Part shown: positions 14,297 through 63,825 of the stretch, one piece after another | Layout of the letters: each line of letters starts with the position of its first letter | Numbering within the stretch: the stretch's first letter is position 1 | Virus record (IMG/VR): IMGVR_UViG_3300008266_000002 | Direction: 5' to 3' (one strand) | Source of the DNA: a virus | DNA length: 64,000 nt | Position numbers and translations under genes: made by a program | Notes under the pieces: model-generated | Told to the model about the DNA's origin: nothing | What the model saw: the letters and a program-made list of their open reading frames with translations, nothing else | Databases searched by the model: none

Positions 14297-15406
14297 ATGA
14301 TATTAAAATTCTATCCTACAAGAGACGCTACAATTTATGAACAGTATCCAAATAGAAATACTGGGTTGGATGCTATTCTAGAAATTAGCAAAAATATCAT
14401 TGCTACTGGTAGTGCTGCATCGGGTAGTTATAATTCTAGAGTCTTATTGGATTTTGATTATACGGCAATATCATCAAGTATTGTGAGCTTAGGATATAAT
14501 CCTAATAGCTTCAAGTATAATTTAAAAATGTATGTGGCAGAAGCGAAAGAGGTTCCTGTCAATTATACACTCTATGCATATCCAATTAGTGGTAGTTGGA
14601 ATATGGGAATTGGTCGCTATGGTAATATTCCACAAACAACTGCAGGAGTGAGTTGGAGATATAGAGAATCACTTGACGATCTAAACTCAGCATGGCCTAC
14701 TAGTTCACATGCAGCAACAGTCACAGCGTCATGGTCAACAACAGCAGGTGGTGGTACATGGTTTACATCAAGTGTAGCCAGCCAGTCCTTTAATTATACC
14801 ACATCCGATGTGGATATGGATATCACACCAATTGTTAATCTAGTGCAATCTGGGTCTATAAGCTTCAATGGTATTATAATTAAAAAATCAGATGCTGACG
14901 AGTCATCAACAAACGTATTCAATAGTCTTAAATTTTTTAGTAAGGATACCCATACCGTCTATCTACCAGTTATAGAAGCTAAATACGATGATAGTATATC
15001 AACTGCTACACTAACCCAAATTAATACAGAAGATGATTTTAACTTGGTGTTTACAAATTTAAAATCTTCTTATAGTGAGAGCTCAACACCAAAAATTCGC
15101 ATAGCACCAAGATATAGATATCCTACTCCAGTTTTTCAAACCTCGTCACTCTATCTAACATCATACAGACTACCAACTGGATCACAGTATGCTGTTTATA
15201 GTGCTCATAATGATGATATAATAATCAACTTTAGTGATTATACTAAGATTAGTGATGATGGAACAAGTAACTACGTGAAACTTCATTTGGATAGTTTTCA
15301 ACCTGAAAGATATTATAGAATGTTGATTAGAGTACCAAATTCTGGATCAGTGAATACTTATCAGGTATATGACGATAAATGGATTTTCAAAGTTACTAGA
15401 AGCTAA
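14297..15406 (+). CDS. Virion structural protein (DNRLRE-like beta domain)
   Basis: DATIYE..P..NTG, SRVLL.FD, MDITPIV patterns; located after gp6. Confidence 0.55.
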   Translation: MILKFYPTRDATIYEQYPNRNTGLDAILEISKNIIATGSAASGSYNSRVLLDFDYTAISSSIVSLGYNPNSFKYNLKMYVAEAKEVPVNYTLYAYPISGSWNMGIGRYGNIPQTTAGVSWRYRESLDDLNSAWPTSSHAATVTASWSTTAGGGTWFTSSVASQSFNYTTSDVDMDITPIVNLVQSGSISFNGIIIKKSDADESSTNVFNSLKFFSKDTHTVYLPVIEAKYDDSISTATLTQINTEDDFNLVFTNLKSSYSESSTPKIRIAPRYRYPTPVFQTSSLYLTSYRLPTGSQYAVYSAHNDDIIINFSDYTKISDDGTSNYVKLHLDSFQPERYYRMLIRVPNSGSVNTYQVYDDKWIFKVTRS

Positions 15407-18400
15407 TGAGATTTCCCGATCAATCCTTAATAGGCGATTTAAACGACAACACAACACCAAGAATAACTACTGGTGTATTTCCGTCTATACCTACATCAAC
15501 AACAGACGAAAATGATACAGTTTATGATCTACTACCCGTAATCATAAATCGACCACCAGTCATTACTAAACCAATAACAGAAGCTTCAACACCACAGATA
15601 AAACCTTACTCAACTGCTAATGCAACTGGAGACTTTATGTACCTCTTTCCGGATGGTACAGTGAAAGTTAATATAGGTTCAACTTTTAAAATTGCTATTG
15701 AAGCCGAGCAACCAAATATACTAAATGTAGAAAATGGTATTTTAAAACTCATACCACCAAGCTCTAGTTTAACATTTATCTGGAGGAAAGATAGTGAAAT
15801 TTTAAACTCATCAACAAGCGACTCACTACAATCATCAGTAGTTGTGAGTGGTAGTGTAATTGAATTCAATAGTGTACAACCATCTTCTGCAGGAACATAC
15901 TTATGTGAAATTTCAAATGATATAGGTACAACAATAAGTGAGACAATTACCTTAGAAATACTTAATCTAGATTTTGATACGTTATTCTATAGAAATCTTG
16001 TTAAAAATCCAACAGGAGCTGATGGAGTAAACGAATGGAATGCAAATAATTCTGATTTTATATCGAAACCATTTTCAAAAATACCATCACAAGATTTTAT
16101 ACGACCTAATAGAGTAGATTTATTTGGATATACAATGGATATGATGCATCCAAGACCTTATCAAATTGATATGGGTGCTATTCAAAATTTTGATATGACT
16201 CAAACGTATCTCAATAATCCTTACTATTTTACTCGCACGAGATATAAATTTGATCGTAAGGGTGGTACATTCCAAGTAAGAGCATATCAAGATATTGACC
16301 TTACGGACATTATACCTTTGATAAAAGGAGGTATATATGGTGTCGAAGGTGTTAGGGCATTGTTTAGTTGCTACATTGGTAATGGTTTATCCCAATATAT
16401 TCCGGTAGAAGAATTAGTTGATCCAAGACGCAGATTAGATCCATTAAGCTACTATCAATCGTATGCAAGGTTAAGTTTAGTAAACTTCCTTACAGCAGGT
16501 CCTGCAGATAAAGTTGTAGAAAAAGCATATGTAACAATTGAAGAATTTGATAATGAAACGAGAGTGCCAACAACTCTGTTAGTTAGTAATCAAGGCGCCA
16601 CCCAAACATATAATTCACGTATTACTCTCTCAGATCCATGGCAAAAACGTATATACGACCCAGCTTTTCAAGTAAGCGTGTATCCTATCGATATATATGG
16701 ACTTCAAGAAACATCGCCAAACGACCCTAGAGACCTGATATTAAATGTAGCGAATAATTTGTATCCAGATCAGCGATATCGATACACATATGGACAGTAT
16801 GTGGAATTTAATAAACAAATTATTGAGAGACTTAATCCAAAGACAACTAAGGTTCGAATTTCGTTAAATTTTGATTCTACTGACTGGAGAATTTTTGAAA
16901 CGTATACGGACTTAGTAAATGATGCGGATGAAATTTTTGAAGTATTGAGTTGGGAGACACCGTACAAAAAAAATAAATTTAGTAAGCCACCACTTAGTCC
17001 AACATATAAACCAATATATCAACGTATAAAGGAGTATTCTGGAAGTCTAGATAAGACGCCTTCAGAATTTTTCCCTACTGCACAAGATCCACGAGTGATG
17101 GTGACTGGATTAAACTTGGCTCTATTACCAATATTAACACAACAAAACCAAGTCACAGACTATTATACTGGAATATCTTTAGTAAGAAATCTAACTCCGA
17201 CTTCATCGTTCCCTTCTGGATTAACTGGCACTCGAATATATGATCCATTAGGAACACTCTCAAAAGCATTAACGGTGACATTCAAATATTATAGTGAAGG
17301 AGTACCAACACTAGATAATCTAGGTTACTTACAAACACGAGATAGGATAGAGTTACGATTAAAATTATCAAGTCAGCCAGGATCACCAAATACACAAAAT
17401 GCATCGTCATTTGTAGACTATCAAATCACCAATGGCGCATTATTTCCATTTGTGCAAAACTCAGTTATTTCCTATGAAGGAGCTATAGAAAATGCTATTA
17501 CTCCAAACGATATACAATCATTTACACCATTTTTTGATTATGTTAGATATAGGTTATTAGATCCATATCAATCAGATAGAAATTCACGTACACCTAATTT
17601 TAGCACAACTGCAAATACTTTAGCTGATAATGGTTATGTAGTTTGGGGAATGAGTGGTAGCATATCACCATCACAATATCCAGAGATAGAAAGACCATGG
17701 ATAAATAAAGCAAGGTATATAATAACTTTTGGGATAGTAAATGCTTCCAATCCATCAACCCCTCCTGGTACACAAACAAGATTAACCACTAGTCAAATAG
17801 GAGGGTCTCAAAATGATACACAAGCCATCCAGTCGTATTATTTAGACTTTGATTTTACAAATCCAGCAGATACAAAGGTAACATTGGCTAGACCAGCTAG
17901 TTTTATTTCACAATCTATCAATGTAGGTAATTTATTTTCTACTTCCGTAGTAGCAGGATCTTCTGGTAGTAAGTATATTGGTAAGGGTACTACAACCAAT
18001 CCAATTGAATTAGAACACTCAATTGATCCATATGGTGTATTACAATCCACAATACCGGCTGAGTTTAAGTTTACCTCTATGAATAATGGTGGCTTTGGAT
18101 TGGGTGGCTATCAATATCAGTTTGAAGTTAGAGAAAGATCCCTTATTAAATTAATTACAGCTTTACATGTTAATCTTGGTAATTACACAAGAGTATCTTT
18201 ACGAGCTAATCGATACTATCAAAGTAGAGTTGAGCAAGCGTTATCTTTTTACGATAGTGAAATTCAATTTGCACAAAATAATCCAACTTTAAACGTATAT
18301 ACACTAAACGGGGTAACTGTTAATGACTTGCAAGATTTTCGTCAACAGTTGGTGGATTATGCATACGATATTCAAGAGGTGCCAAATCAAACTCAATATG

Positions 18401-18894
18401 CTACAATTCTAAGAATATTTGAAAATAATCAAGCAGGTATATCTAGATTCTCCATTAACATTTTCAATCCAGCTTTCTACCCGTCACAGGCTGATTTAAG
18501 TAATCCACAAACACAACTTCGTGTTATTGATCAATATATTCGAGATACGGTTGGAGGATCATTAGGAACTCCTCAATATCAAACTCTCAATTCTAGAATA
18601 TTCAACGACGCACAAGTTACTGATTATACTAATACAACTTTAGGATTGCAGATTGCAGGCGGTACTGTATTTCCATCAAACTTAAATTTATTTAGAGAAG
18701 TACCACCACATCTCTTGAATATGAGGACATCAATACAAAAAATCGAATTATTATCAATTAGACCCTCAGATATTAACTTTGGTCCTGGATCTCCAGCTGC
18801 TGGTTCTACAGCGGATGGTACAAATTATAAAATATATTATACACCACTACAAGACACAAACGAAGGTAATTATATTCCAAGTTCACAAGACTAG
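15406..18894 (+). CDS. Large virion protein with Ig (I-set-like) and FBA/galactose-binding-like domains
   Basis: WRKD...AGTYLCEISNDIG Ig motif; NLVKNPTGADGVNEW, YQDIDL; paralog of next gene. Confidence 0.6.
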   Translation: MRFPDQSLIGDLNDNTTPRITTGVFPSIPTSTTDENDTVYDLLPVIINRPPVITKPITEASTPQIKPYSTANATGDFMYLFPDGTVKVNIGSTFKIAIEAEQPNILNVENGILKLIPPSSSLTFIWRKDSEILNSSTSDSLQSSVVVSGSVIEFNSVQPSSAGTYLCEISNDIGTTISETITLEILNLDFDTLFYRNLVKNPTGADGVNEWNANNSDFISKPFSKIPSQDFIRPNRVDLFGYTMDMMHPRPYQIDMGAIQNFDMTQTYLNNPYYFTRTRYKFDRKGGTFQVRAYQDIDLTDIIPLIKGGIYGVEGVRALFSCYIGNGLSQYIPVEELVDPRRRLDPLSYYQSYARLSLVNFLTAGPADKVVEKAYVTIEEFDNETRVPTTLLVSNQGATQTYNSRITLSDPWQKRIYDPAFQVSVYPIDIYGLQETSPNDPRDLILNVANNLYPDQRYRYTYGQYVEFNKQIIERLNPKTTKVRISLNFDSTDWRIFETYTDLVNDADEIFEVLSWETPYKKNKFSKPPLSPTYKPIYQRIKEYSGSLDKTPSEFFPTAQDPRVMVTGLNLALLPILTQQNQVTDYYTGISLVRNLTPTSSFPSGLTGTRIYDPLGTLSKALTVTFKYYSEGVPTLDNLGYLQTRDRIELRLKLSSQPGSPNTQNASSFVDYQITNGALFPFVQNSVISYEGAIENAITPNDIQSFTPFFDYVRYRLLDPYQSDRNSRTPNFSTTANTLADNGYVVWGMSGSISPSQYPEIERPWINKARYIITFGIVNASNPSTPPGTQTRLTTSQIGGSQNDTQAIQSYYLDFDFTNPADTKVTLARPASFISQSINVGNLFSTSVVAGSSGSKYIGKGTTTNPIELEHSIDPYGVLQSTIPAEFKFTSMNNGGFGLGGYQYQFEVRERSLIKLITALHVNLGNYTRVSLRANRYYQSRVEQALSFYDSEIQFAQNNPTLNVYTLNGVTVNDLQDFRQQLVDYAYDIQEVPNQTQYATILRIFENNQAGISRFSINIFNPAFYPSQADLSNPQTQLRVIDQYIRDTVGGSLGTPQYQTLNSRIFNDAQVTDYTNTTLGLQIAGGTVFPSNLNLFREVPPHLLNMRTSIQKIELLSIRPSDINFGPGSPAAGSTADGTNYKIYYTPLQDTNEGNYIPSSQD

Positions 18895-18908
18895 TATATT
18901 TAAAATAA

Positions 18909-21398: not shown

Positions 21399-21413
21399 GA
21401 AGTTTTTTTAATA

Positions 21414-21421
21414 TATTTATA
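21414..21421 (+). promoter_or_regulatory. Putative late promoter TATTTATA
   Basis: Intergenic, 10 nt before GTG 21432. Confidence 0.7.
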
Positions 21422-21431
21422 TTAAAAATAG

Positions 21432-24400
21432 GTGCCTAATAGAAATATACTTAACGTCAATAACACAAACCTTAGTAATGGACCACAAAGTACATTACCG
21501 GAAGCTGTTGAGAGAGGTGCTACTACTGGCATAGTACGAGAGACACTACAAACAGTGTTAACTCAAGCAACCCAGCAATCACTCGTTACCCCATGGGGAT
21601 TATATAACAACACGATTGCTAACTATCCAAATGATGTAGTTCGTTTGGATGTAATTAATGCCAATAATCAATATCTTGAATCTAACTACAGAGTAACTAC
21701 TTTTGAACAAGTCTTAACGAGAGTTACTGTAGATCCAGAAAGAGACCTTTTTAACTTAGGTTATATTTCCGGAAAATATAGAGTTGTTTATAAATTTCAC
21801 AGAAACTACCTTGGATCAGGTGATGGCCATAAATTACAAATTCAAGAAATTAGTGCAGATGGTCTTGAAATAAGAGTTATACCTGCTGTTTCTACAACAC
21901 TTGATAATACTAGTTTTTTACAAAACTTTGGAGAAAGCTTTTTTGCAATTCCTAAATCGCAAGTGTTATCTAATCTTGTTTTGTTTAAGGATGCAAATAC
22001 TGCAATGCGAGTATTTGATTATGTACAAGATAAGTTTACTTTTCCAACAACTCCATATAGCATAATTTTTAAGTTATCTGCACCAGCACCTGATGGAGTT
22101 ATACTGGGGGACTTTTTATGGTTAGCACAGCAAGTAAGTGATGATCTAGTTGATACTATAACCATAGTACCACCAAAAAGAAGAGCAAGAACAAGAGCAA
22201 TTGCAGGACCAAACTGGGATGCTATAAACAAAGAGCAAACTGCATTTGCAACACAGTATAGAGATTGGGAAGACTTACTATCAACCAACACACAAACATC
22301 ACAAGACATTGTAAACTCACTATTGAGTAGTTCTTTCTTAGAAGGTGTCCCATTAAACATAGATTATAAAGAGTTTAAGAATTTTATCAACTTTAGCTCA
22401 GCATATGAGCGATTGTTGAATTTTAAATACAAGATGCAATTGTTAGAGGGTTATAATGCACGTATTGCAACTCTAACGACAAACTTAAATGGGTTACCAA
22501 GTAGTAGTGTTTCTAGTAGTGTCTATTTTCTAAATAATGTAAATGACGCTACAACAAAAAAAGCAGCACTTATAGGATCGCTGGATGGATATGAGAAATA
22601 TCTCTACTATGAATCTAGTAGTTATGTGACAAATAGCTTTGGTGAGTTCTATCCATCAACTTGGCCAAAATCAACATCCACATTACCATACGTTAATTAC
22701 TCGTATACATCATCGCAAGTAGAAACTTGGTTTGATGGAATATTGACATCTGCAAGTTTGTATGACCAAAATAATGAGAAGGCTTTATACAAGCTGATCC
22801 CAGCACACGTACAAGAAAACGACGCAAATGAAGGATATGTGCTCTTCACACATATGATTGGACACTACTTCGATTTGGTGTTTGCTTATGTGAAAGCAAT
22901 GAGTGATATTAATAATAGAGATCAGTCATTACTTGAAGGATTTAGTAAAGAGCTTGTGTTTCATGTTGCACAAAACTTAGGTGTTGATTTTGAAAATGGT
23001 ACGTCCTTAGAGGAATTATGGAATTATGCATTGGGGACTGATGTGACTGGATCGCTTTCATCAACATATGGAATAACAACTCAAGACAAAACACGAGAGA
23101 CTTGGAAACGTATTATTAATAATCTTCCATATCTACTGAAAACAAAAGGAACGGAGCGTGGTGTTCGAGCATTAATTAATTGCTTTGGTATTCCACAAAC
23201 AATATTACGTATTCGTGAATTTGGAGGTGCAGAACCAGACTTTGATACAAAGACTGATTATGTACATGAAAGGTTTTTCTATGCAACTAGAGTAGGGCGA
23301 ATAACAGGATCAGCATTTCAATATCTATCTACACCATGGGAAAGTTTACCACAAAATTCTCTTAAACCAATGACCATTGAGGTAAGAGCTAAGATGGCTA
23401 AAAACCAGACTGGTGATAAAGTGTTAATGGGAGTAAAAGATCAGTGGTTAATTAAAGCATTTCAAAGCGGTAGTGGTGATCATTTAGGATTTTTTCTAAA
23501 ACAGAGTGGTAGTAGTGTGTGGGTAACTTCAAGTTTTAGTTGCTCAGTGTATGATGGTAACTGGTACCATATTGCATTACAAAGAGAAAATAAAACTGAT
23601 GTAGCAACTCAGAATCAAGTTTATAAGTTGGTTGCAAAGCGTGTTAACTACGAAAAGGTAGTAGCTACCTACTCAGCATCGTTCACAGTTACGGGATCGA
23701 CACCTGCAGGTGTTGCATATAATAGAAGCTTTTTGAGTGGATCATCTCATAATGCTGGTATAAGATTAGTAACAACCGATCCAACGGGTTTTCCAACAAC
23801 TTTCTATCCAAGTTCATCATGGACAGGTAGCATTCAAGAAATAAAGTTCTGGTCAGAGACGCTGAATAATAGCATATTAGACAATCATGCTCTAGCACCT
23901 ACAAGCTTCCAAGGTAATACAGATGGTGTTTTTACTGGAAGTACTTCTAGCTTCTATACCTTAGGTGCCAGATTTACTTTAGGAAGTGATAACATAAGAC
24001 AAAACTATAATATATCGTCTAGCATACAATCAAGACATCCTGATCAAAGTAAGCGCTTATACACTGGTAGTTTTCCAATCAGTGCATCTATTTTGCAAAG
24101 TGGTAGTTTATCAAATTATAGTGGAAGTTTGTCGTTGTTCTTTGAGCCAGTAACAGAAATACACTCTTTAGAATGGCCAGATCTTGGAGCAAATAGAAGT
24201 ATAAGTAATAAAATACGTATTGATGAGACCTTCTTAGCGGGACAAAACCAATTACGTAGAGATAGTAGTGTAGTACGATCATCAACAGATAATTATCCAC
24301 CAGAGAGTTCAAGATTGGGTATTTACCTATCCCCAACAAACGAAGTCAATCAGGACATCGCTGAGCAGTTTGGTGGTATTAGTATTGATGATTATATTGG

Positions 24401-25949
24401 AGATCCATCAGCGTTATCACTAGATCATTATCCAGACCTGCATGAGCTCCAATATGAATACTTTAAAAAATTCACAACTGGAAGAAGAACACCTCAAAAT
24501 TATATAAGGTTATTAAGACACTACGATTCAGCACTATTCAAGTTAATTAAGAAGTTTGTACCATATCGTGCAAACACTCAAGTTGGTCTAGTTATTGAAC
24601 CACACCTATTAACAAGAGCTAAGTTACCAGTCAAGTTACCAACTTTTGAGGATTTACAATATTCATCGTCTATAGATTTAAGACCTGCTATGGAATATAT
24701 TATGCCAGGTGGGTTTGTTCAAGATGGAGATGGTGAGCCTTTCAGAAATGGACCAGATTACGTTGATGAGGGGGTGGTTAATGCAACCTATTTGATTGGC
24801 ATCCAAAGCGAACCACAGCAAATCATACAACCAACGCAAGATACTAGCGTAAACATAAACATTACACCAACTATTCCAACACAATCATATAATATGGTTG
24901 TGATAGATGGTACTGCATTAAATGGTAGCGCTACCTCTTTATTAGATAGTTACGCTAACGAATTTAACAGAACGGGCATTGACGATAATCCATCAACTAG
25001 TGGTAGCATGGCTGCTCAACTGGATTTAGGCATAACAGCATACGGTAGGGATGTGAGAGTTGATGGATCTCAATATATATTCTACAGCTACTATCAAAGC
25101 GGTAGTCAATGGTTAGGTTATACTAGTAGCCGTTATGATTATCACGAAGCTATCAATCCAGTTATCTTAGATAATTCCAGAAGCGCTATTAGTAATAATG
25201 GATTGTCAACATACGATAGTGATATTTTCTTTAATAAAGCGTTTGCAAATTATTTTACGGCATCATACGATGTTGCTTTAACTGGGTCTGGTGTTATAGG
25301 TGATCCATGGTTAGAATATTATGGATTAAGATTGCTTACATCTAGTTATACTAACGCTTACTGGAAAATGTCAAATACAAATGGACTGATGTTATACTGG
25401 ACAGGAAGTGGTATAGCTGGTTCTGCTCTACAACAGAGAGCATTACTTAATGCATTCTTTTACGATGTTGACGAACCATGGACACAAAACTTACTATATG
25501 AAGTGAAGGTGGTTGCAAAACGAGATTCTACTACAATGGAGGCTGACTCGTATTTTAAACTTGCGTTCGGAGGATTATCATTATCATCTACAGAAGATTT
25601 ATCAAGTATAGGCACCACTTACCAAACTTATACGTATACGGTACAACCAAACGGACCACATCTAATAATAAGTGGTGGAATAGATTCATCTTTATCGAGT
25701 AATTTTTACGCAATAAAAAATTTATCAATTAAGTGCTTAAACTATAGAGCGCAAATACAAGATTTTCATTTGCATGATAGTTATGGTATGAGGAATGCTC
25801 GATACGATGGATGCAAGCTTACTTCGGCAGATTGGAATGTACCAAGTACAGACACAGTTGATAATGGCCCAGTAGTTGAAGTAACAATAGGAGGTGGATT
25901 ACAAGTAAATGTTAGTCCAAATTCAGGAGGAAATTTACAAGTATTATAA
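21432..25949 (+). CDS. Large baseplate wedge protein (gp7/P2 gpI-like motif plus LamG-like domain)
   Basis: LPYLLKTKGTERGVRALINCFGI (KGT motif of gp7/gpI-like proteins); DGNWYHIALQR and GSIQEIKFW LamG-like motifs; GTG start. Confidence 0.65.
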   Translation: MPNRNILNVNNTNLSNGPQSTLPEAVERGATTGIVRETLQTVLTQATQQSLVTPWGLYNNTIANYPNDVVRLDVINANNQYLESNYRVTTFEQVLTRVTVDPERDLFNLGYISGKYRVVYKFHRNYLGSGDGHKLQIQEISADGLEIRVIPAVSTTLDNTSFLQNFGESFFAIPKSQVLSNLVLFKDANTAMRVFDYVQDKFTFPTTPYSIIFKLSAPAPDGVILGDFLWLAQQVSDDLVDTITIVPPKRRARTRAIAGPNWDAINKEQTAFATQYRDWEDLLSTNTQTSQDIVNSLLSSSFLEGVPLNIDYKEFKNFINFSSAYERLLNFKYKMQLLEGYNARIATLTTNLNGLPSSSVSSSVYFLNNVNDATTKKAALIGSLDGYEKYLYYESSSYVTNSFGEFYPSTWPKSTSTLPYVNYSYTSSQVETWFDGILTSASLYDQNNEKALYKLIPAHVQENDANEGYVLFTHMIGHYFDLVFAYVKAMSDINNRDQSLLEGFSKELVFHVAQNLGVDFENGTSLEELWNYALGTDVTGSLSSTYGITTQDKTRETWKRIINNLPYLLKTKGTERGVRALINCFGIPQTILRIREFGGAEPDFDTKTDYVHERFFYATRVGRITGSAFQYLSTPWESLPQNSLKPMTIEVRAKMAKNQTGDKVLMGVKDQWLIKAFQSGSGDHLGFFLKQSGSSVWVTSSFSCSVYDGNWYHIALQRENKTDVATQNQVYKLVAKRVNYEKVVATYSASFTVTGSTPAGVAYNRSFLSGSSHNAGIRLVTTDPTGFPTTFYPSSSWTGSIQEIKFWSETLNNSILDNHALAPTSFQGNTDGVFTGSTSSFYTLGARFTLGSDNIRQNYNISSSIQSRHPDQSKRLYTGSFPISASILQSGSLSNYSGSLSLFFEPVTEIHSLEWPDLGANRSISNKIRIDETFLAGQNQLRRDSSVVRSSTDNYPPESSRLGIYLSPTNEVNQDIAEQFGGISIDDYIGDPSALSLDHYPDLHELQYEYFKKFTTGRRTPQNYIRLLRHYDSALFKLIKKFVPYRANTQVGLVIEPHLLTRAKLPVKLPTFEDLQYSSSIDLRPAMEYIMPGGFVQDGDGEPFRNGPDYVDEGVVNATYLIGIQSEPQQIIQPTQDTSVNINITPTIPTQSYNMVVIDGTALNGSATSLLDSYANEFNRTGIDDNPSTSGSMAAQLDLGITAYGRDVRVDGSQYIFYSYYQSGSQWLGYTSSRYDYHEAINPVILDNSRSAISNNGLSTYDSDIFFNKAFANYFTASYDVALTGSGVIGDPWLEYYGLRLLTSSYTNAYWKMSNTNGLMLYWTGSGIAGSALQQRALLNAFFYDVDEPWTQNLLYEVKVVAKRDSTTMEADSYFKLAFGGLSLSSTEDLSSIGTTYQTYTYTVQPNGPHLIISGGIDSSLSSNFYAIKNLSIKCLNYRAQIQDFHLHDSYGMRNARYDGCKLTSADWNVPSTDTVDNGPVVEVTIGGGLQVNVSPNSGGNLQVL

Positions 25950-26784: not shown

Positions 26785-27834
26785 ATGGCTGAAATTTATA
26801 AACTCTTTACACCTGATGATATAGTTCAAGGGGACGTACAAACGATATCTCAACCAATTTGGTCAGAGAATCTTAACCCACTATCATCATCTATATCTGG
26901 AGTTGGGTACTTTACATCATCTGCGCAAGCATCGCAATCAGGAGATTATTACCTAAATATATACCATAGGAATCCATCAACAGCAACCAATGCAGCAATT
27001 CAATTTGCGCTTGCATATGGTCATCGTTTAGGTAGTGGATCTTATGGTGATGCTAACACAGTTGGAAACAATGCTAACGATACACCAACAAGAGCAATCT
27101 ATTCACAATATAGAAACATGTTACTTCCGCCAACAGATCAAGTGTTTACGTTTGGAGGTACTAATTCAGATGAAATTATTGTAATAAATGTAGCTCGTTC
27201 AAGATTCCGTCAAAAAATAGATCCAGGAAACTGGGAATTGCGAATTGGTAGTGGATCTACGGGAGGTAGTACAGCAGCCTACTCAAGCTTTATTGATGCA
27301 AGTGGTGCTGGTGTCAATCCATCAATTAACGAAGCAGGTCGTATATTTGGAATTTATTCTGGTTCTGGTGGTGTAACTGCATCTTCAACACAATATGGAT
27401 TATTTTATCCAGACCAAGGAGTGTTTGTATTCCATGCTGGCTTATTGAGATCAAACTTAGGTATTCCATTTAATAGTGCATCTGCAACAACTTTATCATC
27501 AGCAGGAACACAACCAAGAAACCATGTAACAATGTCTCGCCACATTTCTGCTTCAGGATATTTTGCAGCTAGAAGTGAAGAAAAAGTGACATCAACACAC
27601 TACTTTGTTCGTGTAACAAATAGACAATTTAACTTCTCAAATAACCCAACCTTTGTAACTGGTAGTACTGGAACATTCTTACACTCAAGTATGCTTCGTA
27701 ATCCAAGTGTTTACATTACCACAATTGGATTATTCGATGATAGAAATCGTCTAGTGGCAGTTGCAAAACTTAGCAAGCCGTTATTAAAGTCATTTAATCG
27801 CGAAGCGTTGATAAAAGTTAAGTTAGATTATTAA
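26785..27834 (+). CDS. Baseplate/tail structural protein (paralog of 29292..30941)
   Basis: C-terminal YITTIGLFDDRNRLVAVAKLSKP; several blocks shared with 29292..30941. Confidence 0.6.
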   Translation: MAEIYKLFTPDDIVQGDVQTISQPIWSENLNPLSSSISGVGYFTSSAQASQSGDYYLNIYHRNPSTATNAAIQFALAYGHRLGSGSYGDANTVGNNANDTPTRAIYSQYRNMLLPPTDQVFTFGGTNSDEIIVINVARSRFRQKIDPGNWELRIGSGSTGGSTAAYSSFIDASGAGVNPSINEAGRIFGIYSGSGGVTASSTQYGLFYPDQGVFVFHAGLLRSNLGIPFNSASATTLSSAGTQPRNHVTMSRHISASGYFAARSEEKVTSTHYFVRVTNRQFNFSNNPTFVTGSTGTFLHSSMLRNPSVYITTIGLFDDRNRLVAVAKLSKPLLKSFNREALIKVKLDY

Positions 27835-54029: not shown

Positions 54030-55652
54030 ATGAACTTATTCGAAAACATCAAGGAGACCAACAGGGGTGCGGAAGTAAGACCTCTGATTAACAAATGGTC
54101 TAAAACTGGTCTTTTGGAAGGTCTTAAAGGCAACAATGAAAAATCAACTGTTGCTATCCTTCTTGAAAACCAAGCAAAACAATTACTAAAAGAGGGATCT
54201 GTATCTTCTGCAGGTACTGGCGCAGCTGGATACGAGCAGTATCACGGTGTAGCTCTTCCTCTTGTACGCAGGATCTTTGCTGAGATCGCAGCTAAAGAAT
54301 TCGTTTCTGTACAACCAATGAACCTTCCTTCTGGTCTAGTATTCTACTTAGACTTCAAGTATGGTACAAACAAACAACCATTTGGTTATTCTCCAACTGG
54401 TAGAAACCAGGTAGGTACTCTTCAAGGGATAACTACTGGAAGTGGTTCTCCTAAAGACGGTCTTTATGGTGCTGGTAGATTTGGTTACTCTATGAACCTC
54501 GTTGCTACTGGTAGCCAAACATTCACAACCGGTTCTGCAACTGCAGCATCTGTAAACTATGATGGCGACTTCACTGGTTCCCTTTCAAACTACAGAACGC
54601 TTACAATTTCTAACTTCTTCGTGAACGCTGGTGCAAATGCCGATCCATATGCAGTGCGTTCTTTTATTCCACAATCAGCTTCTTTTGCATTAACAGCGGG
54701 TACAGACTACTTCCCAGCGTTCACACAAAAATCAGGCAACGACCTTATTTTCTTAGTATCGGCTTCAGCTGCAGGTTCTGGTTCAACAATGGCGAGCTCC
54801 GCTGTAAGTTTCTCAATTCAACCAACTAATGATGGTCGTTCAGATTTTGAAAGCACTGGAGTAACAGCAAACAACCGTTCACTTGATACAAACCTTAACA
54901 TCCCTGAAATTGAATTACAAATGCGTTCAATTCCAGTAACTGCTAAGACTCGTAAGTTGAAAGCAAGCTGGACACCTGAATTTGCACAAGACCTTAACGC
55001 ATACCACTCTGTAGATGCTGAGGCAGAATTAACAGCTATGTTGTCTGAGTATGTTTCAATGGAAATTGACCTTGAAATTTTAGACATGCTGATTTCTGCA
55101 GCTGACACTACTGAATACTGGTCTGCAAAGGTTGGTCAAGAGTGGAATCCTGGTACAAGTACGTTTGTTGCTTCTCAGTTCACTGGTCAAGCATACATCC
55201 AAGGTACGTGGTTTGCAACTCTTGGTACTAAGCTTCAAAAAGTGAGTAACCAAATCCATGCCAAGACTCTTAGAGGTGGTGCTAACTTCTTAGTATGTTC
55301 TCCAACAGTTTCTACAATCCTTGAGTCAATCCCAGGATATGCAGCTGACGGTGATGGTACTAAGATGAAATATGCAATGGGTGTACAAAAAGTAGGTGCT
55401 ATGACTAGCCGCTACGAAGTATACAAAAACCCTTACATGCAAGAAAACACAGTATTAATGGGATTCCGTGGTAACCAATTCCTTGAGACAGGTGCGGTTT
55501 ATGCTCCATATATTCCATTGATGCTTACTCCTCTTGTATACGATCCTAACAACTTCATTCCAAGACGTGGTGTAATGACCCGTTACGCGAAAGTTGTAAC
55601 TCGTCCTGAGTTCTACGGTAAAGTATACGTAGGTGATTTAGGTGTAGTGTAA
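54030..55652 (+). CDS. gp23: Major capsid protein (T4 gp23-like)
   Basis: LLENQ, LVRR, VQPM..PSGLVF, VTAKTRKLKASWT.E.AQDL.A.H..DAE.EL, YAPYIPL, GVMTRY. Confidence 0.96.
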   Translation: MNLFENIKETNRGAEVRPLINKWSKTGLLEGLKGNNEKSTVAILLENQAKQLLKEGSVSSAGTGAAGYEQYHGVALPLVRRIFAEIAAKEFVSVQPMNLPSGLVFYLDFKYGTNKQPFGYSPTGRNQVGTLQGITTGSGSPKDGLYGAGRFGYSMNLVATGSQTFTTGSATAASVNYDGDFTGSLSNYRTLTISNFFVNAGANADPYAVRSFIPQSASFALTAGTDYFPAFTQKSGNDLIFLVSASAAGSGSTMASSAVSFSIQPTNDGRSDFESTGVTANNRSLDTNLNIPEIELQMRSIPVTAKTRKLKASWTPEFAQDLNAYHSVDAEAELTAMLSEYVSMEIDLEILDMLISAADTTEYWSAKVGQEWNPGTSTFVASQFTGQAYIQGTWFATLGTKLQKVSNQIHAKTLRGGANFLVCSPTVSTILESIPGYAADGDGTKMKYAMGVQKVGAMTSRYEVYKNPYMQENTVLMGFRGNQFLETGAVYAPYIPLMLTPLVYDPNNFIPRRGVMTRYAKVVTRPEFYGKVYVGDLGVV

Positions 55653-56981: not shown

Positions 56982-57006
56982 TTGAATTTTAATTGGTAAA
57001 GCCTAC

Positions 57007-57014
57007 TATTTATA
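57007..57014 (+). promoter_or_regulatory. Putative late promoter TATTTATA
   Basis: Intergenic, 20 nt before ATG 57035. Confidence 0.7.
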
Positions 57015-57034
57015 TGTAAACAACTACGTAGAAT

Positions 57035-58216
57035 ATGGCTAACATACCAATCTGGCCTGGATCCAGTTCATTTACTACATTATCAGCATCCTTCTACACA
57101 GGATCAACTACAACTAGACCAACTCCATTTGGATACTACGATGGTGATGCTACGTTTAAATTAGAAGCGGATAAGGTAGCTGATTGGTGTGCTAGAAGAT
57201 TGGGTTACCCAATCATGGATGTAGAATTACAAGACATTAACTTTTTTGCAGCATTTGAGGAAGCAGTAACAGAATTTAGTACTCAAGTTAACATGAACAA
57301 TGCAAAGGACTACATGTTAACATTAATTGGTACTCCAGTCACAAATCAACTTAGTCAAAAACCCGTAACACCTAATCTTGGTCGTACAATTACTATGGCT
57401 AAAGGTTATGGTAGTGAAGCTGGTAGTGGTGGTACAGTAGACTGGAAAAAAGGATATGTGGATCTAGTGCCAGGATCACAAAGCTATGATTTGGATGCAT
57501 TGTGGGCTAATGTTAGTGAGTCTGGAAAAGAGATAGAGATCAAGAGAGTTTATCACGACTTTACTCCAGCTATTGTAAGATACTTTGACCCTTATGTTGG
57601 AACTGGTGCTGGTACTCAGCAATTATTAGATAGCTTTGGATGGGGATCTTATTCACCAGCTGTATCGTTCCTAGTAATGCCACTATATGCAGACTTATTA
57701 AGAATGCAGGCTATCGAATTAAATGATACTATAAGAAAATCAAATTACTCATTTGAGCTTAGAAATAATAAACTTAATTTGTTTCCAATTCCAACTCTAC
57801 CATACAAGATGTGGTTTGAGTATATTGTTGTGGATGATAGAAATGCACCAGTTTCAGGAAGCTCTACTGGATCAATCAGCGATTTAAGTAACGTACCTTA
57901 TAGTAGAATTCAGTTTGGCAGCATAAAGGATATAGGCATTCAGTGGATATATAAATACACACTAGCGCTTGTGAAAGAAATGCTGGGTTTAGTTCGTAGC
58001 AAGTATTCAGTTGTTCCTATTCCAGGTGCAGAAACAACATTAAATGGAACAGACCTAATGTCACAAGGGAGAGAAGATAAGACAGCATTAATAACAGAGT
58101 TGCAGACATTACTACAAGGTATGACACGTCAAGGTCAGATGGAGCAAGAGGTGGCAGTTGCAACAGCACTACAAACACAATTATCAAAAGTACCTCTTTA
58201 CATATACGTTAAATAA
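57035..58216 (+). CDS. Neck/head-tail adaptor protein (T4 gp13-like)
   Basis: RRLGYPIMDVEL, WIYKYTLALVKEMLG.VRSKY..PIPG...TLNG. Confidence 0.8.
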   Translation: MANIPIWPGSSSFTTLSASFYTGSTTTRPTPFGYYDGDATFKLEADKVADWCARRLGYPIMDVELQDINFFAAFEEAVTEFSTQVNMNNAKDYMLTLIGTPVTNQLSQKPVTPNLGRTITMAKGYGSEAGSGGTVDWKKGYVDLVPGSQSYDLDALWANVSESGKEIEIKRVYHDFTPAIVRYFDPYVGTGAGTQQLLDSFGWGSYSPAVSFLVMPLYADLLRMQAIELNDTIRKSNYSFELRNNKLNLFPIPTLPYKMWFEYIVVDDRNAPVSGSSTGSISDLSNVPYSRIQFGSIKDIGIQWIYKYTLALVKEMLGLVRSKYSVVPIPGAETTLNGTDLMSQGREDKTALITELQTLLQGMTRQGQMEQEVAVATALQTQLSKVPLYIYVK

Positions 58217-59909: not shown

Positions 59910-59910
59910 A

Positions 59911-60549
59911 ATGGCTTTATTTAGAGGTGATCAAATATCGGGTAGTGTTGCATCAGCGAGTTTGGCTAATACAGCATCGTATGTCCAAACAGCTCAAACT
60001 GCAAGTTATGCATTAAATGCAGTGAGTAGTAGTTTTTCTTCTACAGCATCGTTTGCTGTAACAGCTTCCTACTCACTAAATGCAGGAACTACTATAGATA
60101 CGGGTTCCTTTGTGCTTACCTCTTCTTTTACAAATTACACTGGCTCAACAACAAGTCAATTTGCAGGAACTGCATCATTTGCTAGTACTGCGTCTTTTGT
60201 AAGAGTAGCCCAAACAGCTTCGTATGTGTTAAATGCAGTGAGTGCTTCTTTTGCAACAACATCATCGTATGCATTTACGTCTGTGAGTAGTAGCTTTGCA
60301 ACAACAGCCAGCTATGCTCCTCCAACATTTCCATTTACAGGAAGTGCTATAGTTTCTGGATCGTTAGTGGTAACTGGTTCAACAAACATAGCTGGAAATT
60401 CTGGTACGACTTTGTTTTCAAGTAATGCAGATACGTTAATCATAACTGGATCGCTTTTATTGACGGGATCGATGAATGTAGTTGGTCTAATCACTGGAAC
60501 AGCATCATTCGCAATAAGTGCGAGCTATATAGATGGAGGTTTTTACTAA
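59911..60549 (+). CDS. Short fibre-like protein with A-x-T-A-S-[YF] repeats
   Basis: Many TASY/TASF/SASF units; C-terminal IDGG. Confidence 0.6.
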   Translation: MALFRGDQISGSVASASLANTASYVQTAQTASYALNAVSSSFSSTASFAVTASYSLNAGTTIDTGSFVLTSSFTNYTGSTTSQFAGTASFASTASFVRVAQTASYVLNAVSASFATTSSYAFTSVSSSFATTASYAPPTFPFTGSAIVSGSLVVTGSTNIAGNSGTTLFSSNADTLIITGSLLLTGSMNVVGLITGTASFAISASYIDGGFY

Positions 60550-61442
60550 TGCCTATATCATTAATCAATATAAACAATCAAGGAAGAATAAATCTTCAGA
60601 ATAATGGAACTGGTCAAATCTACGCATTAGTTTCATCAACACCATCTGTAGCGGTAACGGGATCTCCATGGCAGCAAATAGATACTATCACATCATACTT
60701 ACGTAACTACGTTTCTGATTTTAGAAATCCGCAATTTTACATATATCGATTGGATGGTAATCAATATCAAATTAATGATGCCGGAAATGATATGTTTGAT
60801 GGTGGAAACTACACAATTCCTGCATTACGAAACGGAACACAATACACAGCGTCATCAACGGTAGCAATACCCCCAGCACTTTCATATCTATCTCAGTCCG
60901 CTACACTGACTGATACAAATTATTATTTTGCGTCTTTTGGTTATTCACAATCGGCTGGGCCACTGACAACAAGTCCGCAAAGCCCTATTTATCATCCACT
61001 AACAATGATTGGAGCACGTAGTGGATCAGGACCAATAGGATGGCAGAAAGCTGGTAATATTGGAGCAGATGGAGCAGGTAGTATAGCAACAGGCAGTGTG
61101 TATACTGGTTCTACTGTTAATGGATTTACCACATACGCGTATTATAGACAAACGTATGGAGAAGGCTCAGATCCAAATATTTGTGATGTATATATGTTAT
61201 TTGGACATCCAAATTGGAACTCTGATTTTGGAAATGTTGTATGGTCAGTAAACCTAAATAGAGGACTTCAAGGCGCAGCTTTGTACTCAACTGGATCAGC
61301 ATCAAATCTATTAGCAGTAACAACCTTATTAAGTAGAACGGGAAGTACAGCTAATTCACCAAGTTTACCAATAAGCGCAAGTGATATTACAAACGTTGTT
61401 AACAATTTCACACTTCGTATTAAGGAAGCGTTATCCTTTTAA
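60549..61442 (+). CDS. Putative virion (fibre-associated) protein
   Basis: Beta-rich, [ST]xS-rich, between fibre genes; DAGNDMFDGGN acidic loop. Confidence 0.5.
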   Translation: MPISLININNQGRINLQNNGTGQIYALVSSTPSVAVTGSPWQQIDTITSYLRNYVSDFRNPQFYIYRLDGNQYQINDAGNDMFDGGNYTIPALRNGTQYTASSTVAIPPALSYLSQSATLTDTNYYFASFGYSQSAGPLTTSPQSPIYHPLTMIGARSGSGPIGWQKAGNIGADGAGSIATGSVYTGSTVNGFTTYAYYRQTYGEGSDPNICDVYMLFGHPNWNSDFGNVVWSVNLNRGLQGAALYSTGSASNLLAVTTLLSRTGSTANSPSLPISASDITNVVNNFTLRIKEALSF

Positions 61443-61450
61443 CTTGAAGA

Positions 61451-61458
61451 TATTTATA
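61451..61458 (+). promoter_or_regulatory. Putative late promoter TATTTATA
   Basis: 4 nt before ATG 61463. Confidence 0.7.
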
Positions 61459-61462
61459 GTAA

Positions 61463-63400
61463 ATGCCAGATAGAATATTACATAAGAGAAACCTAACATC
61501 GGGAAATATTCCTACCACAGCATCGCTGGAGGTGGGGGAGTTAGCTATAAATGTGGCTGATGGAAAGGTTCATCTACGAAGATCGGGTAGTGGAAATAAT
61601 GACATAGTGTCGCTAGTCACTGCCAATACAGTAACTACTGGATCAATAACAGCCACATCATTTACTGGAAGCTTATTTGGAACAAGTAGTTGGGCCAGCA
61701 GCGCAACGACTTCATCTTACGCTATACAAGCTCTCAGTAGTTCATATGCAATAGTAGCTTTGAGTAGTAGTATAGCTAATACAGCATCTTACGCAGTATT
61801 AGCTCAGAGTGCGACATCAAGTTCCTATGCAGCAACCTCATCTTATGTTAATACACTAAATCAGGATGTTACTATTTCGGGATCTTTGGCGGTTATTGGC
61901 AACTCCGTATTTTATGGATCCTCATCGTTTTTATACATAACTGCATCGCAATTAGCAATAAGCTCATCATTTATATCAGTAAACATATTTGAACCGCTTG
62001 AAAGATTTGGTGGTTTGAAGGTATACGATTCTGGATCATCTAATGCGACTGCATCGTTAGCTTGGGATTCGCAGCATAATCACTGGGTATACCAAAATGT
62101 GAGTGGATCTACTTACACTGGTGGCATGTTACTTTCAGGTCCAAGAAACACTGGATCTTTGGGAGATGAGCCAAATTTAACAAAATGGTTTATACCAAGA
62201 AGCGATGGAGGAGATCACTTAGACGATTCTCAAATTTTTACTAGTGGATCCACAACAATCGTAACTGGATCATTAACAGTCACTCAGGGGATAACTGGAA
62301 GCTTATATGGAACAAGTAGTTGGGCTCTCAATGCACAAACAGCTTCCTATGTAGAGTCAGCTCAAACAGCATCATACATACTTAATGCGGTCTCAGCATC
62401 TTTTGCACAAACAGCTTCGTATCTTTTAGGGTATATTTCACCATTCCCATTTAGTGGTAGTGCGCAAATAACTGGAAGTTTAGGAGTAACTGGATCATTT
62501 ATTATTGCAGACGGATCAAACATAGTAATTGATTCGGTAAATAGAGTACTAAAAGATTCTAGTGGCATTAATTCAATAAGCTGGAATAGTAGAAGACTAG
62601 CAGACACAAATGCCACCACTTCAATTGACTGGGATCAGAAAAAACTTAATGATGGTAGTGATGTAACATCCATCAACTGGGAATCTAGAAGACAAAACGA
62701 TAATACGGGAGTATCAGCAGTCGATTGGGGTCAGCGACAATTAACAGATGCAGTTGGATCAATATCAACCGACTGGTCATCAAGGATTCACTACGATAGT
62801 ACCACAATAGGTAGTATTAATTGGGAAGCAAGACAGTTACTAGACTCTACTGAAACATTGGTGCTGGATTGGAATAACAAAACATTGACTGCTAGTTTAC
62901 ATGGAACTGCAAGCTGGGCAGAAAGTGTTACTACATCATCATACGCTCTAACAGCGTCCTTTGTGAATTTACTCAACCAGAGTGTAATAATCACAGGCAG
63001 TCTTACCGTTGGATCAGGATCAATTGGTGTAGGTGAAAATACACTGGTAATAGGACCAGCACCCAATGGAGGTATAGGAGAAGGAGGTCAGATATTATTG
63101 TCTGCAGTAGGTGGTACCTACACATCTGCTTCAATGATAGACAACTATCAAAACAGATTTAGAATACTAAGAGGTACGAACGCAGGTAGCGATGCTGAGA
63201 TAGCTAGTTTGAATATGAGTACAGGTCAGTTAATATTAAATAAATACACAGGGTCTGGCGCATTTCCAGGCACGGCAGCTGCCAATTTAGCAGTAGATAC
63301 TAGCGGTAATGTTATTACAGTAACACCTGGAGCGTCAAGCACCGCTACTTTCAATTACGGATTATCATATGCAATAGCAAATTCACAACAATTATTTTAA
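61463..63400 (+). CDS. Tail fibre protein
   Basis: N-terminal KR....IP....L..GELAIN.ADGK fibre anchor motif; TASY/SSSY repeats; 16-aa Trp repeats. Confidence 0.8.
   Translation: MPDRILHKRNLTSGNIPTTASLEVGELAINVADGKVHLRRSGSGNNDIVSLVTANTVTTGSITATSFTGSLFGTSSWASSATTSSYAIQALSSSYAIVALSSSIANTASYAVLAQSATSSSYAATSSYVNTLNQDVTISGSLAVIGNSVFYGSSSFLYITASQLAISSSFISVNIFEPLERFGGLKVYDSGSSNATASLAWDSQHNHWVYQNVSGSTYTGGMLLSGPRNTGSLGDEPNLTKWFIPRSDGGDHLDDSQIFTSGSTTIVTGSLTVTQGITGSLYGTSSWALNAQTASYVESAQTASYILNAVSASFAQTASYLLGYISPFPFSGSAQITGSLGVTGSFIIADGSNIVIDSVNRVLKDSSGINSISWNSRRLADTNATTSIDWDQKKLNDGSDVTSINWESRRQNDNTGVSAVDWGQRQLTDAVGSISTDWSSRIHYDSTTIGSINWEARQLLDSTETLVLDWNNKTLTASLHGTASWAESVTTSSYALTASFVNLLNQSVIITGSLTVGSGSIGVGENTLVIGPAPNGGIGEGGQILLSAVGGTYTSASMIDNYQNRFRILRGTNAGSDAEIASLNMSTGQLILNKYTGSGAFPGTAAANLAVDTSGNVITVTPGASSTATFNYGLSYAIANSQQLF
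61664..62325 (+). repeat. 32-nt direct repeat pair inside the fibre gene
   Basis: ACTGGAAGCTTAT[T/A]TGGAACAAGTAGTTGGGC at 61664-61695 and 62294-62325 (31/32 identical). Confidence 0.85.
62525..62890 (+). repeat. About 8 x 16-aa protein repeat S-I-[DN]-W-x-x-R-x-L-x-D
   Basis: Seven Trp residues exactly 16 aa apart plus one degenerate upstream unit. Confidence 0.85.
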
Positions 63401-63411
63401 AAATATAAATT

Positions 63412-63825
63412 ATGGCAGCGAATACAGCACCAATTTTTACAGCAACACCAAGTATTCAATGGACAGACTCCATGTCAATTGCAAATACAACAAAGGACAT
63501 GACAACTGGCTCAGCATATCTTACCTTTACAGCTGGTGTAAGTGGCAGCTTTGTTCAAAGACTAAGATTTCGTACATTAGGAACAAATGTAGCGTCAGTT
63601 GCAAGAGTATGGATCAATAATGGACAAAGTACTGCATCCTTTACTAATAATACATTATGGGACGAATTATCACTTCCAGCTACAACGGTAACAGAAACAG
63701 CAGCACAATCAAATTATGAATTACCATTGAATTTTGCATTACCAAGCAACTACAGACTATACATCACTTTAGGTACTGGAGTAGCAGCTGGTTGGGATGC
63801 AATTGCGGTTGGTGGAGATTACTAA
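63412..63825 (+). CDS. Small virion protein downstream of fibre
   Basis: Beta-rich 137 aa ending GGDY; carries TGS/SGS/TAS motifs. Confidence 0.6.
   Translation: MAANTAPIFTATPSIQWTDSMSIANTTKDMTTGSAYLTFTAGVSGSFVQRLRFRTLGTNVASVARVWINNGQSTASFTNNTLWDELSLPATTVTETAAQSNYELPLNFALPSNYRLYITLGTGVAAGWDAIAVGGDY

Follow-up and report, generated by a model that had tools for sequence, protein, structure and literature searches.

The virion proteins of the aquatic T4-like phage recorded in IMG/VR as IMGVR_UViG_3300008266_000002 carry a short serine motif, [ST]-[GASQ]-S followed by a hydrophobic residue, far more often than their composition predicts. We analysed a 64,000-nt stretch of this record (the window), for which an earlier note had proposed from hand counts that [S/T]-[G/A/S/Q/E]-S is a modification sequon on outward-facing proteins. 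The motif is confirmed to be real and strictly ordered, with Ser strictly at position 3 and a hydrophobic or aromatic residue at position 4, and its excess lies on outer proteins and outer domains only, as the note had held. Based on these properties and on a large glycan island elsewhere in the genome, we see about an even chance that the motif is a phage-encoded O-glycosylation signal on virion surface proteins. Exact-protein matches placed the window at positions 64001-128000 of a 164,316-bp genome, which was rebuilt as a complete circle by walking the contig and its circularly permuted twin. All long open reading frames (ORFs) of the window lie on the plus strand, and the window represents a T4-type virion module with gp25-like and gp6-like baseplate proteins, a gp20 portal, a prohead protease, a gp23 capsid and a gp13-like neck. 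Pfam matches recorded for the genome include Phage_T4_gp13, GPW_gp25, Phage_sheath_1 and T4_baseplate, and the presence of gp23, gp20, gp13, gp25, gp6 and sheath genes identifies a T4-like (gp23-type) myovirus. Among named phages, Flavobacterium phage immuto and Microcystis phage Mel-JY01 have the closest capsid proteins (each ~53% identical), and the host is probably a member of the Bacteroidota.

Three forms of the motif were counted, namely the core [ST]GS, the full motif [ST][GASQE]S and the four-residue form [ST]-[GASQ]-S-hydrophobic, and expected counts were taken from 1000 composition shuffles per protein. The full motif occurred 222 times in the window with 93 expected, and in nine enriched virion proteins other than the fibres (the non-fibre set) the core occurred 55 times with 8 expected. 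The excess survived shuffles within 10-, 20- and 40-residue windows, which keep the local composition; with 10-residue windows the non-fibre set still held 55 cores against 10.5±3.1 (highest shuffle 21) and 116 full motifs against 43.8±6.2, and z scores were above 10 in both global and local shuffles. An unbiased tripeptide scan of the same set put SGS (32 vs 4.4) and TGS (23 vs 3.5) far above all others, with the Thr-ending counterparts at expectation (SGT 2 vs 3.5; TGT 3 vs 2.9), while TGS (21 vs 2.1) and TAS (21 vs 2.5) led in the fibres. A mirror test, which needs no composition model, gave 23 TGS against 2 SGT in the non-fibre set (p = 2e-5), and 21 TGS against 1 SGT and 21 TAS against 3 SAT in the fibres. 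The global shuffles, the window shuffles and the mirror tripeptides rule out composition, overall or local, as the source of the excess, in agreement with the note's view that composition alone is insufficient; repeats and paralogy are insufficient too.

The signature is specific at each position. With Ser at position 3 the four-residue form occurred 116 times against 17.2±4.1 expected (6.75-fold), and with Thr at the same place 14 times against 13.6 (1.03-fold). Position 4 is strongly hydrophobic or aromatic (F 3.3-fold, Y 2.4-fold), G is enriched 5.9-fold at position 2, and the residue before the motif (position -1) tends to be V (2.7-fold) or I (2.0-fold); among dipeptides GS stands at 1.95 vs 1.07 for GT, 1.12 for GN and 0.95 for GD. 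Middle A, S or Q showed a modest enrichment of ~2-3-fold in the non-fibre set and no significant mirror asymmetry, and these variants were accepted because they interchange with G at homologous columns. Only 3 of 193 motifs had E in the middle. The definition in the note therefore needed revision: G, A, S and Q stand, E lacks support, and a hydrophobic or aromatic position 4 is to be added. Its distinction from the Bacteroidota motif D-[ST]-[ALVIMT] was borne out, the latter occurring 20 times in the enriched proteins with 26.3±4.7 expected (0.76-fold). The motif is encoded with either family of Ser codons and with every Gly and Thr codon, so the signal acts at the protein level, and a DNA-level motif was ruled out.

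Over the whole 164-kb genome the core occurred 120 times with 39.8 expected, and the entire excess was located in the distal baseplate, the fibre proteins, the insertion domain of the capsid, the neck and the N-terminal third of the sheath. The distal baseplate protein of 369 aa (14297..15406) holds 13 full motifs vs 3.3 expected and 6 cores vs 0.54, in two domains resembling the beta-sandwich of carbohydrate-binding modules (CBMs). Its AlphaFold2 (AF2) model is of good confidence (predicted local distance difference test, pLDDT, 86.6), its fold comes closest to that of a chondroitin-sulfate-binding CBM (8wab, E 2e-6), and 4332 metagenomic relatives were found. The model places three of the 13 motifs in strands, one in a helix and nine in loops or at the ends of strands; this secondary structure rules out a single structural context, and no single structural role fits the motif. 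A tail or baseplate protein of 1505 aa (21432..25949) has 32 full motifs with 9.2 expected, 15 of the core type, clustered at residues 299-900 and 1078-1324; the orthologue in a relative, G001 (55% identical), has 38, of which 21 fall in the same columns. The gp23-type major capsid protein (54030..55652; Pfam Gp23, E 3e-74) has 8 motifs, all within residues 136-252 of 540, which is the insertion domain (about 54435-54788) and the part that escapes the otherwise poor quality of its AF2 model (pLDDT 57). The gp13-like neck protein (57035..58216; PHROG head-tail adaptor Ad2, Pfam Phage_T4_gp13) has 7 vs 1.6, and the sheath, encoded just outside the window, has 6 cores vs 1.1, mostly in its N-terminal third.

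The other enriched proteins comprise virion proteins of 349 aa (26785..27834; 10 vs 3.1), 459 aa (27913..29292; 8 vs 3.3, p = 0.015), 714 aa (35494..37638; 13 vs 3.5), 467 aa (37640..39043; 13 vs 3.6) and 297 aa (60549..61442; 11 vs 2.6), and a 549-aa protein with a LamG/ConA-like lectin domain (29292..30941; Pfam Laminin_G_3, E 1.6e-10; 12 vs 4.1), to whose C-terminus that of the 349-aa protein is distantly similar. The 467-aa protein would have 500 aa from a TTG at 37541, and all its motifs lie downstream of the ATG at 37640. The G002 orthologue of the 714-aa protein has 21 motifs against 12 or 13 here, with one shared column only. In the fibre region, a fibre-like protein of 212 aa (59911..60549) has 24 motifs in periodic T-A-S-[YF]-A repeats at 6- and 9-residue spacing, and a fibre protein of 645 aa (61463..63400) has 39, with 16 cores vs 2.8, in TAS/TSS repeats and [IV]-T-G-S-L runs. 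These two share their periodic repeats (48% identity over 116 residues), the unit being ~[ST]-[AS]-S-[YF]-A-x with alternating 6/9 spacing; Pfam and PHROG offered no family for the shorter and none that gives the longer a function. The excess was borderline in a 1162-aa protein with weak matches to immunoglobulin-like (Ig-like) domains (15406..18894; full 7 vs 5.0, core 4 vs 1.06) and weak in a 137-aa protein (63412..63825; 3 vs 1.0, p = 0.06). BLAST detected only three weak pairs among the enriched proteins, which are thus mostly not detectable paralogues, and hidden paralogy was rejected as an explanation. All hand counts of the note were reproduced (13 at 14297, 13 at 37541/37640, 7 in the neck), the dense runs were given numbers, and its statement that the motif crosses unrelated folds agrees with the lack of homology among these proteins and with the mixed secondary-structure contexts.

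The negative controls of the note held as well. No motif was found in the portal (47210..49057; Pfam Portal_T4, E 4e-67), an internal control, or in the fused Mre11-Rad50 (32292..35477; Pfam Metallophos and AAA_23/SMC_N), a non-virion control, and the putative large terminase (from 45578) has 1. The composition control, a Ser/Thr-rich Ig-like protein of 556 aa with a type IX secretion system (T9SS) sorting tail (2228..3898), has 1 with 3.1 expected and no core. The core was absent from the portal, the terminase, the protease, the tape-measure-like protein (8492) and three proteins of 874, 814 and 684 aa encoded downstream of the sheath gene; counts of 1 in the gp6-like protein of the inner wedge and 2 in the hub-region protein at 7123 were not significant, and a 162-aa protein after the sheath, at the place of the tail tube in relatives, has fewer than 2. 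No excess was seen in the replication and sugar enzymes of the genome. Three tandem Gly/Ser-rich genes of ~300 aa, two with Gly_rich_2, lie between the fibres and the sheath (piece L092 of the genome, 12563-15312), and their products also lack an excess (0, 2 and 1 vs 1.0-2.0 expected). The 2228-3898 protein matches Pfam Ig_7 and, weakly, Por_Secre_tail; its sorting domain points to a Bacteroidota host, whose type IX secretion the phage appears, on this sequence evidence, to use for it.

The motif excess is a property of a clade. We compared five relatives (G001-G005), immuto and 80 related IMG/VR loci. In the 80 loci [ST]GS occurred 1268 times with 408 expected, against 425 with 366 expected for [ST]GT. 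The genome-wide tripeptide enrichment that the note had called for placed SGS and TGS first and second in this phage and in G001, in the top two places in reverse order in G003, and first and third in immuto. Across this phage, G001-G005 and immuto the Ser form stood at 1.9-4.2-fold and the Thr form at 0.6-1.2-fold, against 0.4-0.9-fold and 1.2-1.8-fold, respectively, in T4, Vibrio phage R11Z and Synechococcus phage S-H9-2. The virion and fibre proteins of T4 showed no excess (core 7 vs 11.3; full 41 vs 44), and these three phages rule out a general feature of T4-like virions or fibres. Thr is expected to be favoured over Ser in beta-rich proteins, and the clade reverses this usual preference. 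No excess appeared over 41 kb surrounding the capsid gene of LR756508 (LR756508.1, 151973-193517), a 484-kb uncultured phage whose capsid protein, at 52% identity, is about as similar to the one here as are those of immuto and Mel-JY01.

Within the clade the density of the motif is kept while its positions turn over. Among 80 capsid homologues the motifs concentrate at reference positions 150-250, most often at columns 167 (66 of 80), 216 (58), 182 (50) and 244 (40), where aligned relatives swap TGS, TAS, SSS and SQS; none of these conserved columns carries the motif in T4 or LR756508. For the 14297 protein, with 61 homologues compared, conservation reached 0.72 at position 1 and 0.78 at position 3, vs 0.58 for other Ser/Thr; position 4 was kept as W, F, Y or I, while position 2 changed freely between G, A, S and Q, in support of the degenerate middle position of the note. 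At greater distances, glycines of the motif were less conserved than other glycines (43% vs 59%). Site-by-site conservation exceeded the background in this closer 61-member family but not in pairwise comparisons of orthologues. Orthologues had similar totals (295 vs 269 motifs) yet shared a column in only 48% of cases.

The note had seen no glycosyltransferase in the window and had advised a search elsewhere in the genome, and that search found six. The same genome encodes them in a glycan island of ~17 kb, which lies 40-57 kb upstream of the window (pieces L105, 1-16222, and L106, 8500-9999), and the Pfam scan assigned them to glycosyltransferase (GT) families as two GT4-like, two GT2, one GT11 and one GT15 enzyme; the other entries of the island are Pfam matches on record. 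Two GT4-like paralogues of the GT-B type, 499 and 436 aa long, are encoded side by side; in gene order they are followed by a zinc-ribbon protein, the smaller GT2 (207 aa), two DegT-type aminotransferase ORFs, a hexapeptide acyltransferase, the GT15-like enzyme, the GT11, several dehydratases or epimerases, an HpcH-type aldolase, a dehydroquinate-synthase-like (DHQS-like) enzyme, a thiamine-diphosphate-dependent (ThDP) enzyme and the larger GT2 (432 aa). The HpcH/HpaI-type aldolase, the DHQS-like enzyme and the ThDP-dependent enzyme sit as a trio between epimerase genes, and their annotation suggests a branched or higher-carbon sugar. Against PF00534 the GT4-like pair scored 23.4 bits (499 aa) and 20.2 bits (436 aa), below the gathering cut-off of 26.4. 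Both proteins have the EX7E motif, and an alignment of 221 residues between them shows 24% identity (E 3e-8). The nearest clusters of the pair are about 100% viral, with PF00534 in 31-95% of their members, and at least 8000 metagenomic relatives of the 436-aa transferase were found.

The pair and both GT2 enzymes are kept in G002, G003, G004 and immuto, while the sugar-nucleotide genes vary; the G005 contig is incomplete and lacks the whole region syntenic to the island. The pair was present in all three complete relatives and in 4 of 28 fragmentary ones, and among 50,697 phage records only immuto and Mel-JY01 had it, both with the motif excess. A scan for distant carriers reached only relatives that are 50-57% identical, with no independent lineage among them. 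By tblastn, LR756508 has no such pair.

By hydropathy, none of the six transferases has a membrane-spanning segment and the island encodes no membrane protein; its Pfam annotations on record include no flippase, polymerase or priming enzyme. A lipid-linked surface glycan pathway was rejected on the ground that no membrane protein is encoded there. DNA is another conceivable target. Liquid chromatography-mass spectrometry of immuto DNA gave dA, dC, dT and formyl-preQ1 replacing dG, with no sugar adduct (bioRxiv 10.1101/2023.04.13.536721). The homologous island of immuto therefore does not glycosylate DNA, and a DNA-modifying role of the island is unlikely. An 8-mer, TATTTATA, often after A or C, lies 20-30 nt upstream of many virion genes (for example at 21414, 25968, 35482, 47191 and 57007). 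The whole genome has 33 copies, 23 of them between genes, and the element resembles late promoters of the T4 type. Because [AC]TATTTATA precedes both many virion genes and the amidase gene that leads into the island, the sequence weakly suggests that the island is co-expressed with the virion genes. Small ORFs of a presumed early region outside the window are preceded, at a distance of ~60 nt, by another element, AACTGTTG(TC).

A signal that is specific in order, in Ser and in clade, and that recurs on unrelated outer proteins, calls for a clade-specific reader, and the best candidate is the glycan island, soluble and with no other evident acceptor. We infer that [ST]-[G>A,S,Q]-S-hydrophobic would be a linear acceptor signal, read in the host cytoplasm by a phage-encoded factor that is most likely the phage's own soluble glycosylation machinery. 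The conserved core of the island (the 499- and 436-aa pair, the 207-aa GT2 and the 432-aa GT2) would put the first sugar on a motif serine, and the variable remainder (GT11, GT15, aminotransferases, dehydratases, acetyltransferase, aldolase and ThDP enzyme) would make and add further sugars. The outcome would be a glycan coat on the outward parts of capsid, neck, sheath, distal baseplate and fibres. In its widest form, this proposal would describe a very large aquatic T4-like clade, comprising thousands of metagenomic relatives and the cultured phages immuto and Mel-JY01, whose O-glycosylation signal [ST]-[G/A/S/Q]-S-hydrophobic is read by the virus-specific soluble GT4-like pair, with the glycan elaborated by a variable island and the whole outer surface sugar-coated; the chance of that, on present comparative data, seems to us slightly short of even.

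Several observations weigh against this proposal. The motif and the enzyme block are common to one clade, which amounts to essentially one evolutionary event, so that cause and co-inheritance are inseparable; covariation inside the clade, another check that the note had advised, offered no contrast, all complete relatives having the enzyme pair. Since both traits belong to one clade, the link between motif and enzymes is circumstantial. The note's proposal of an O-glycosylation sequon is thus partly supported. RM378 lacks the pair by tblastn yet has 11 motifs vs 4.1 expected, a small number from a 24-kb sample, and [ST]GT is somewhat raised in immuto too (1.6-fold). Non-virion proteins of the phage do not avoid the motif (~21 vs ~24 expected). 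The hydrophobic residues at -1 and +4, together with the glycine, would also fit strand-edge or turn geometry, and burial of the aromatic residue at position 4, if it occurs, could keep an enzyme from reaching part of the motif once the protein is folded. Finally, the soluble glycan islands of aquatic phages could act on other acceptors.

The first alternative is that the motif is structural and unmodified, a lineage-specific feature of strand edges, short hairpins and bulges in outer proteins built of beta-sandwich and beta-helical modules, which spread by module exchange and convergent drift. The flanking hydrophobics and the glycine enrichment are what such a feature would show. Several motifs do fall where a strand ends or in a hairpin loop of two residues (for example residues 37-39 in the 14297 protein and 160-162 in the capsid protein), some motif columns are highly conserved, and in the fibres the motif belongs to a periodic repeat unit. 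Nevertheless, position 3 excludes Thr, which forms strands more readily than Ser, the equally good turn dipeptides GT, GN and GD are not enriched, and the motif lies in strand, helix and loop alike. Its glycine is less conserved than other glycines, its positions turn over at kept density in proteins that are not detectable paralogues, and T4, LR756508 and others have homologues of these proteins that need no such motif to fold. We therefore regard a purely structural motif as unlikely.

A second alternative keeps the reader and changes its nature: the signal would be recognised for phosphorylation, acylation or nucleotidylation, or by a chaperone or assembly factor, and the island would serve another soluble or host acceptor. 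The specificity in clade, order and Ser argues for some reader, and only co-occurrence ties that reader to the transferases; moreover, the genome encodes GroES, GroEL, Hsp20 and a truncated class-II aminoacyl-tRNA-synthetase-like protein. Against this, the Pfam annotation of the contig holds no protein kinase or other serine-modifying candidate, and six soluble transferases with neither a lipid-carrier pathway nor a DNA target need an acceptor, of which the virion proteins are the obvious abundant one. We also know of no GroEL-type chaperone that reads short polar motifs. A different reader is, in our judgement, quite unlikely.

The third alternative holds that exposed Ser/Thr hydroxyls form an unmodified adhesive surface that binds host or environmental polysaccharides. 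The carbohydrate-binding-type folds of the 14297 and 29292 proteins and the location of the motifs on outward-facing proteins agree with it, but capsid, sheath and neck are unlikely to share one ligand, a hydroxyl-rich surface is not expected to prefer Ser strictly over Thr in a fixed order, and outside the fibres the motifs are dispersed rather than arrayed; we hold it to be improbable. An artefact of composition, low complexity, internal repeats or multiple testing has next to no probability left, for although the enriched proteins are Ser/Thr/Gly-rich and tandem repeats multiply the motifs of the fibres, it is excluded by the shuffle z scores, the composition-free mirror test, the ranking of SGS and TGS as first and second of 8000 tripeptides, the replication in 80 related loci and the equally Ser/Thr-rich proteins of window and genome that lack the motif.

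The proposed O-glycosylation was compared with known systems. Mycobacteriophage virions are described as extensively glycosylated (Freeman et al. 2023, Cell Host Microbe 31:1216, as cited in PMC12582341). The likeness would lie in the phage's own soluble glycosyltransferases, in structural proteins as presumed acceptors in the host cytoplasm and in the sugar-coated particle to be expected. The glycosylation of mycobacteriophages was reportedly shown chemically, whereas the case here is a prediction from sequence, and it concerns a T4-like myovirus of a probable Bacteroidota host with unrelated, virus-specific GT4-like, GT2, GT11 and GT15 enzymes. The mycobacteriophage glycans reportedly sit on C-terminal stretches of capsid and tail-tube subunits, in siphoviruses of Actinobacteria. 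Here, the motifs are internal and dispersed over many outer proteins instead. To our knowledge, phage-encoded virion glycosylation is known only from mycobacteriophages, and we know of no acceptor rule there.

Two cytoplasmic systems of bacteria resemble the proposal in the form of the signal or of the enzymes. TibC, a soluble GT-B enzyme of the cytoplasm, acts on a beta-rich surface protein that is later exported and glycosylates it at many serines but at no threonines (PMC4358343). The strict Ser preference and the multi-site pattern of the TibC-TibA and Aah-AIDA-I systems resemble the motif signature of the phage, as far as sequence can show. The sites of TibA (N-S-G-G, T-S-A-A) differ from the motif here, and the acceptors are autotransporters, not virions. 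TibC is a heptosyltransferase of the GT9-like type that has an iron-finger motif and forms a dodecameric ring, whereas the phage pair matches only GT1/GT4 profiles. Features of the bacterial autotransporter heptosyltransferase (BAHT) fold were not found in the phage enzymes, as the Pfam scan (E up to 1) gave only GT1/GT2 family matches and the PDB profile search no TibC. In the GtfA-GtfB system of serine-rich repeat adhesins, adjacent paralogous GT4-type GT-B proteins prime O-GlcNAc on serine-rich S-x-S sequences in the cytoplasm, and further transferases elaborate the glycan. The phage genes for the 499- and 436-aa proteins are likewise adjacent GT4-like paralogues followed by more transferases. 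Unlike GtfB, which is non-catalytic, both phage proteins keep EX7E. The pair has no match to DUF1975, and no SecA2/SecY2 was found on the contig; the candidate acceptors are globular virion proteins rather than long serine-rich repeats, and an accessory Sec system is lacking.

The general O-glycosylation of Bacteroidota acts in the periplasm on D-[ST]-[ALVIMT] from a lipid-linked glycan. It shares with the proposal the probable host phylum and an O-linkage to Ser/Thr in a three-residue motif, and it differs in that virion proteins never reach the periplasm before lysis and that the phage island has no flippase or oligosaccharyltransferase. Among solved structures the best match of the 436-aa transferase was B736L of Paramecium bursaria chlorella virus (PBCV) NY-2A (PDB 3oy2), a weak one (E 0.007 over ~65 residues). 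This enzyme is likewise virus-encoded and of the GT4 type, and the chloroviruses to which it belongs put glycans on their own capsid. These glycans are N-linked and occupy unusual positions of a capsid protein with a double jelly roll, in contrast to the O-linkage proposed here.

We found no description of the motif in the published literature, and a sequence-defined protein glycosylation code would, if true, be the first known for a phage. It would allow glycosylated sites to be predicted from sequence across environmental phages of a very abundant group, and would account for their large glycan islands without membrane machinery. Such a sequon would be relevant to how stable and sticky the virion is, how it recognises a host and how it escapes proteases or grazers, and would supply a compact tag and enzyme pair for glycoengineering in the bacterial cytoplasm. 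The cultured phage immuto (vB_FspM_immuto, MW353176; host Flavobacterium sp. LMO8) carries both the motif excess and the enzymes, which makes the idea directly testable. Its tail-spike protein immuto_169 has 26 core motifs and immuto_214 has 12, and immuto_89 and immuto_90 are its GT4-like pair. A purely structural motif would still be unusual, since a whole clade would have turned round the normal preference of beta-rich proteins for Thr over Ser.

Some further genes deserve mention. Downstream of the window (piece L102, 12777-17035), genes for QueD, a QueE-like radical SAM (S-adenosylmethionine) enzyme and FolE represent a 7-deazaguanine DNA modification pathway, and the set resembles the pathway shown experimentally to give formyl-preQ1 DNA in immuto. 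The phage-encoded Hsp20, GroES and GroEL lie in a row adjoining a family-A DNA polymerase (piece L106, 2280-4662). The truncated class-II aminoacyl-tRNA-synthetase-like gene (288 aa, Pfam tRNA-synt_2; piece L103, 2370-3576) is directly followed by a 112-aa cupin of the mannose-6-phosphate isomerase type. The window also encodes a primase and, in the middle of the virion module, a 627-aa protein (39580-41463, plus strand) with a weak N-terminal match of the cytidylyltransferase type; by description only, it can be set beside an immuto gene upstream of the terminase that is annotated as a NadR-type nicotinamide mononucleotide (NMN) adenylyltransferase.

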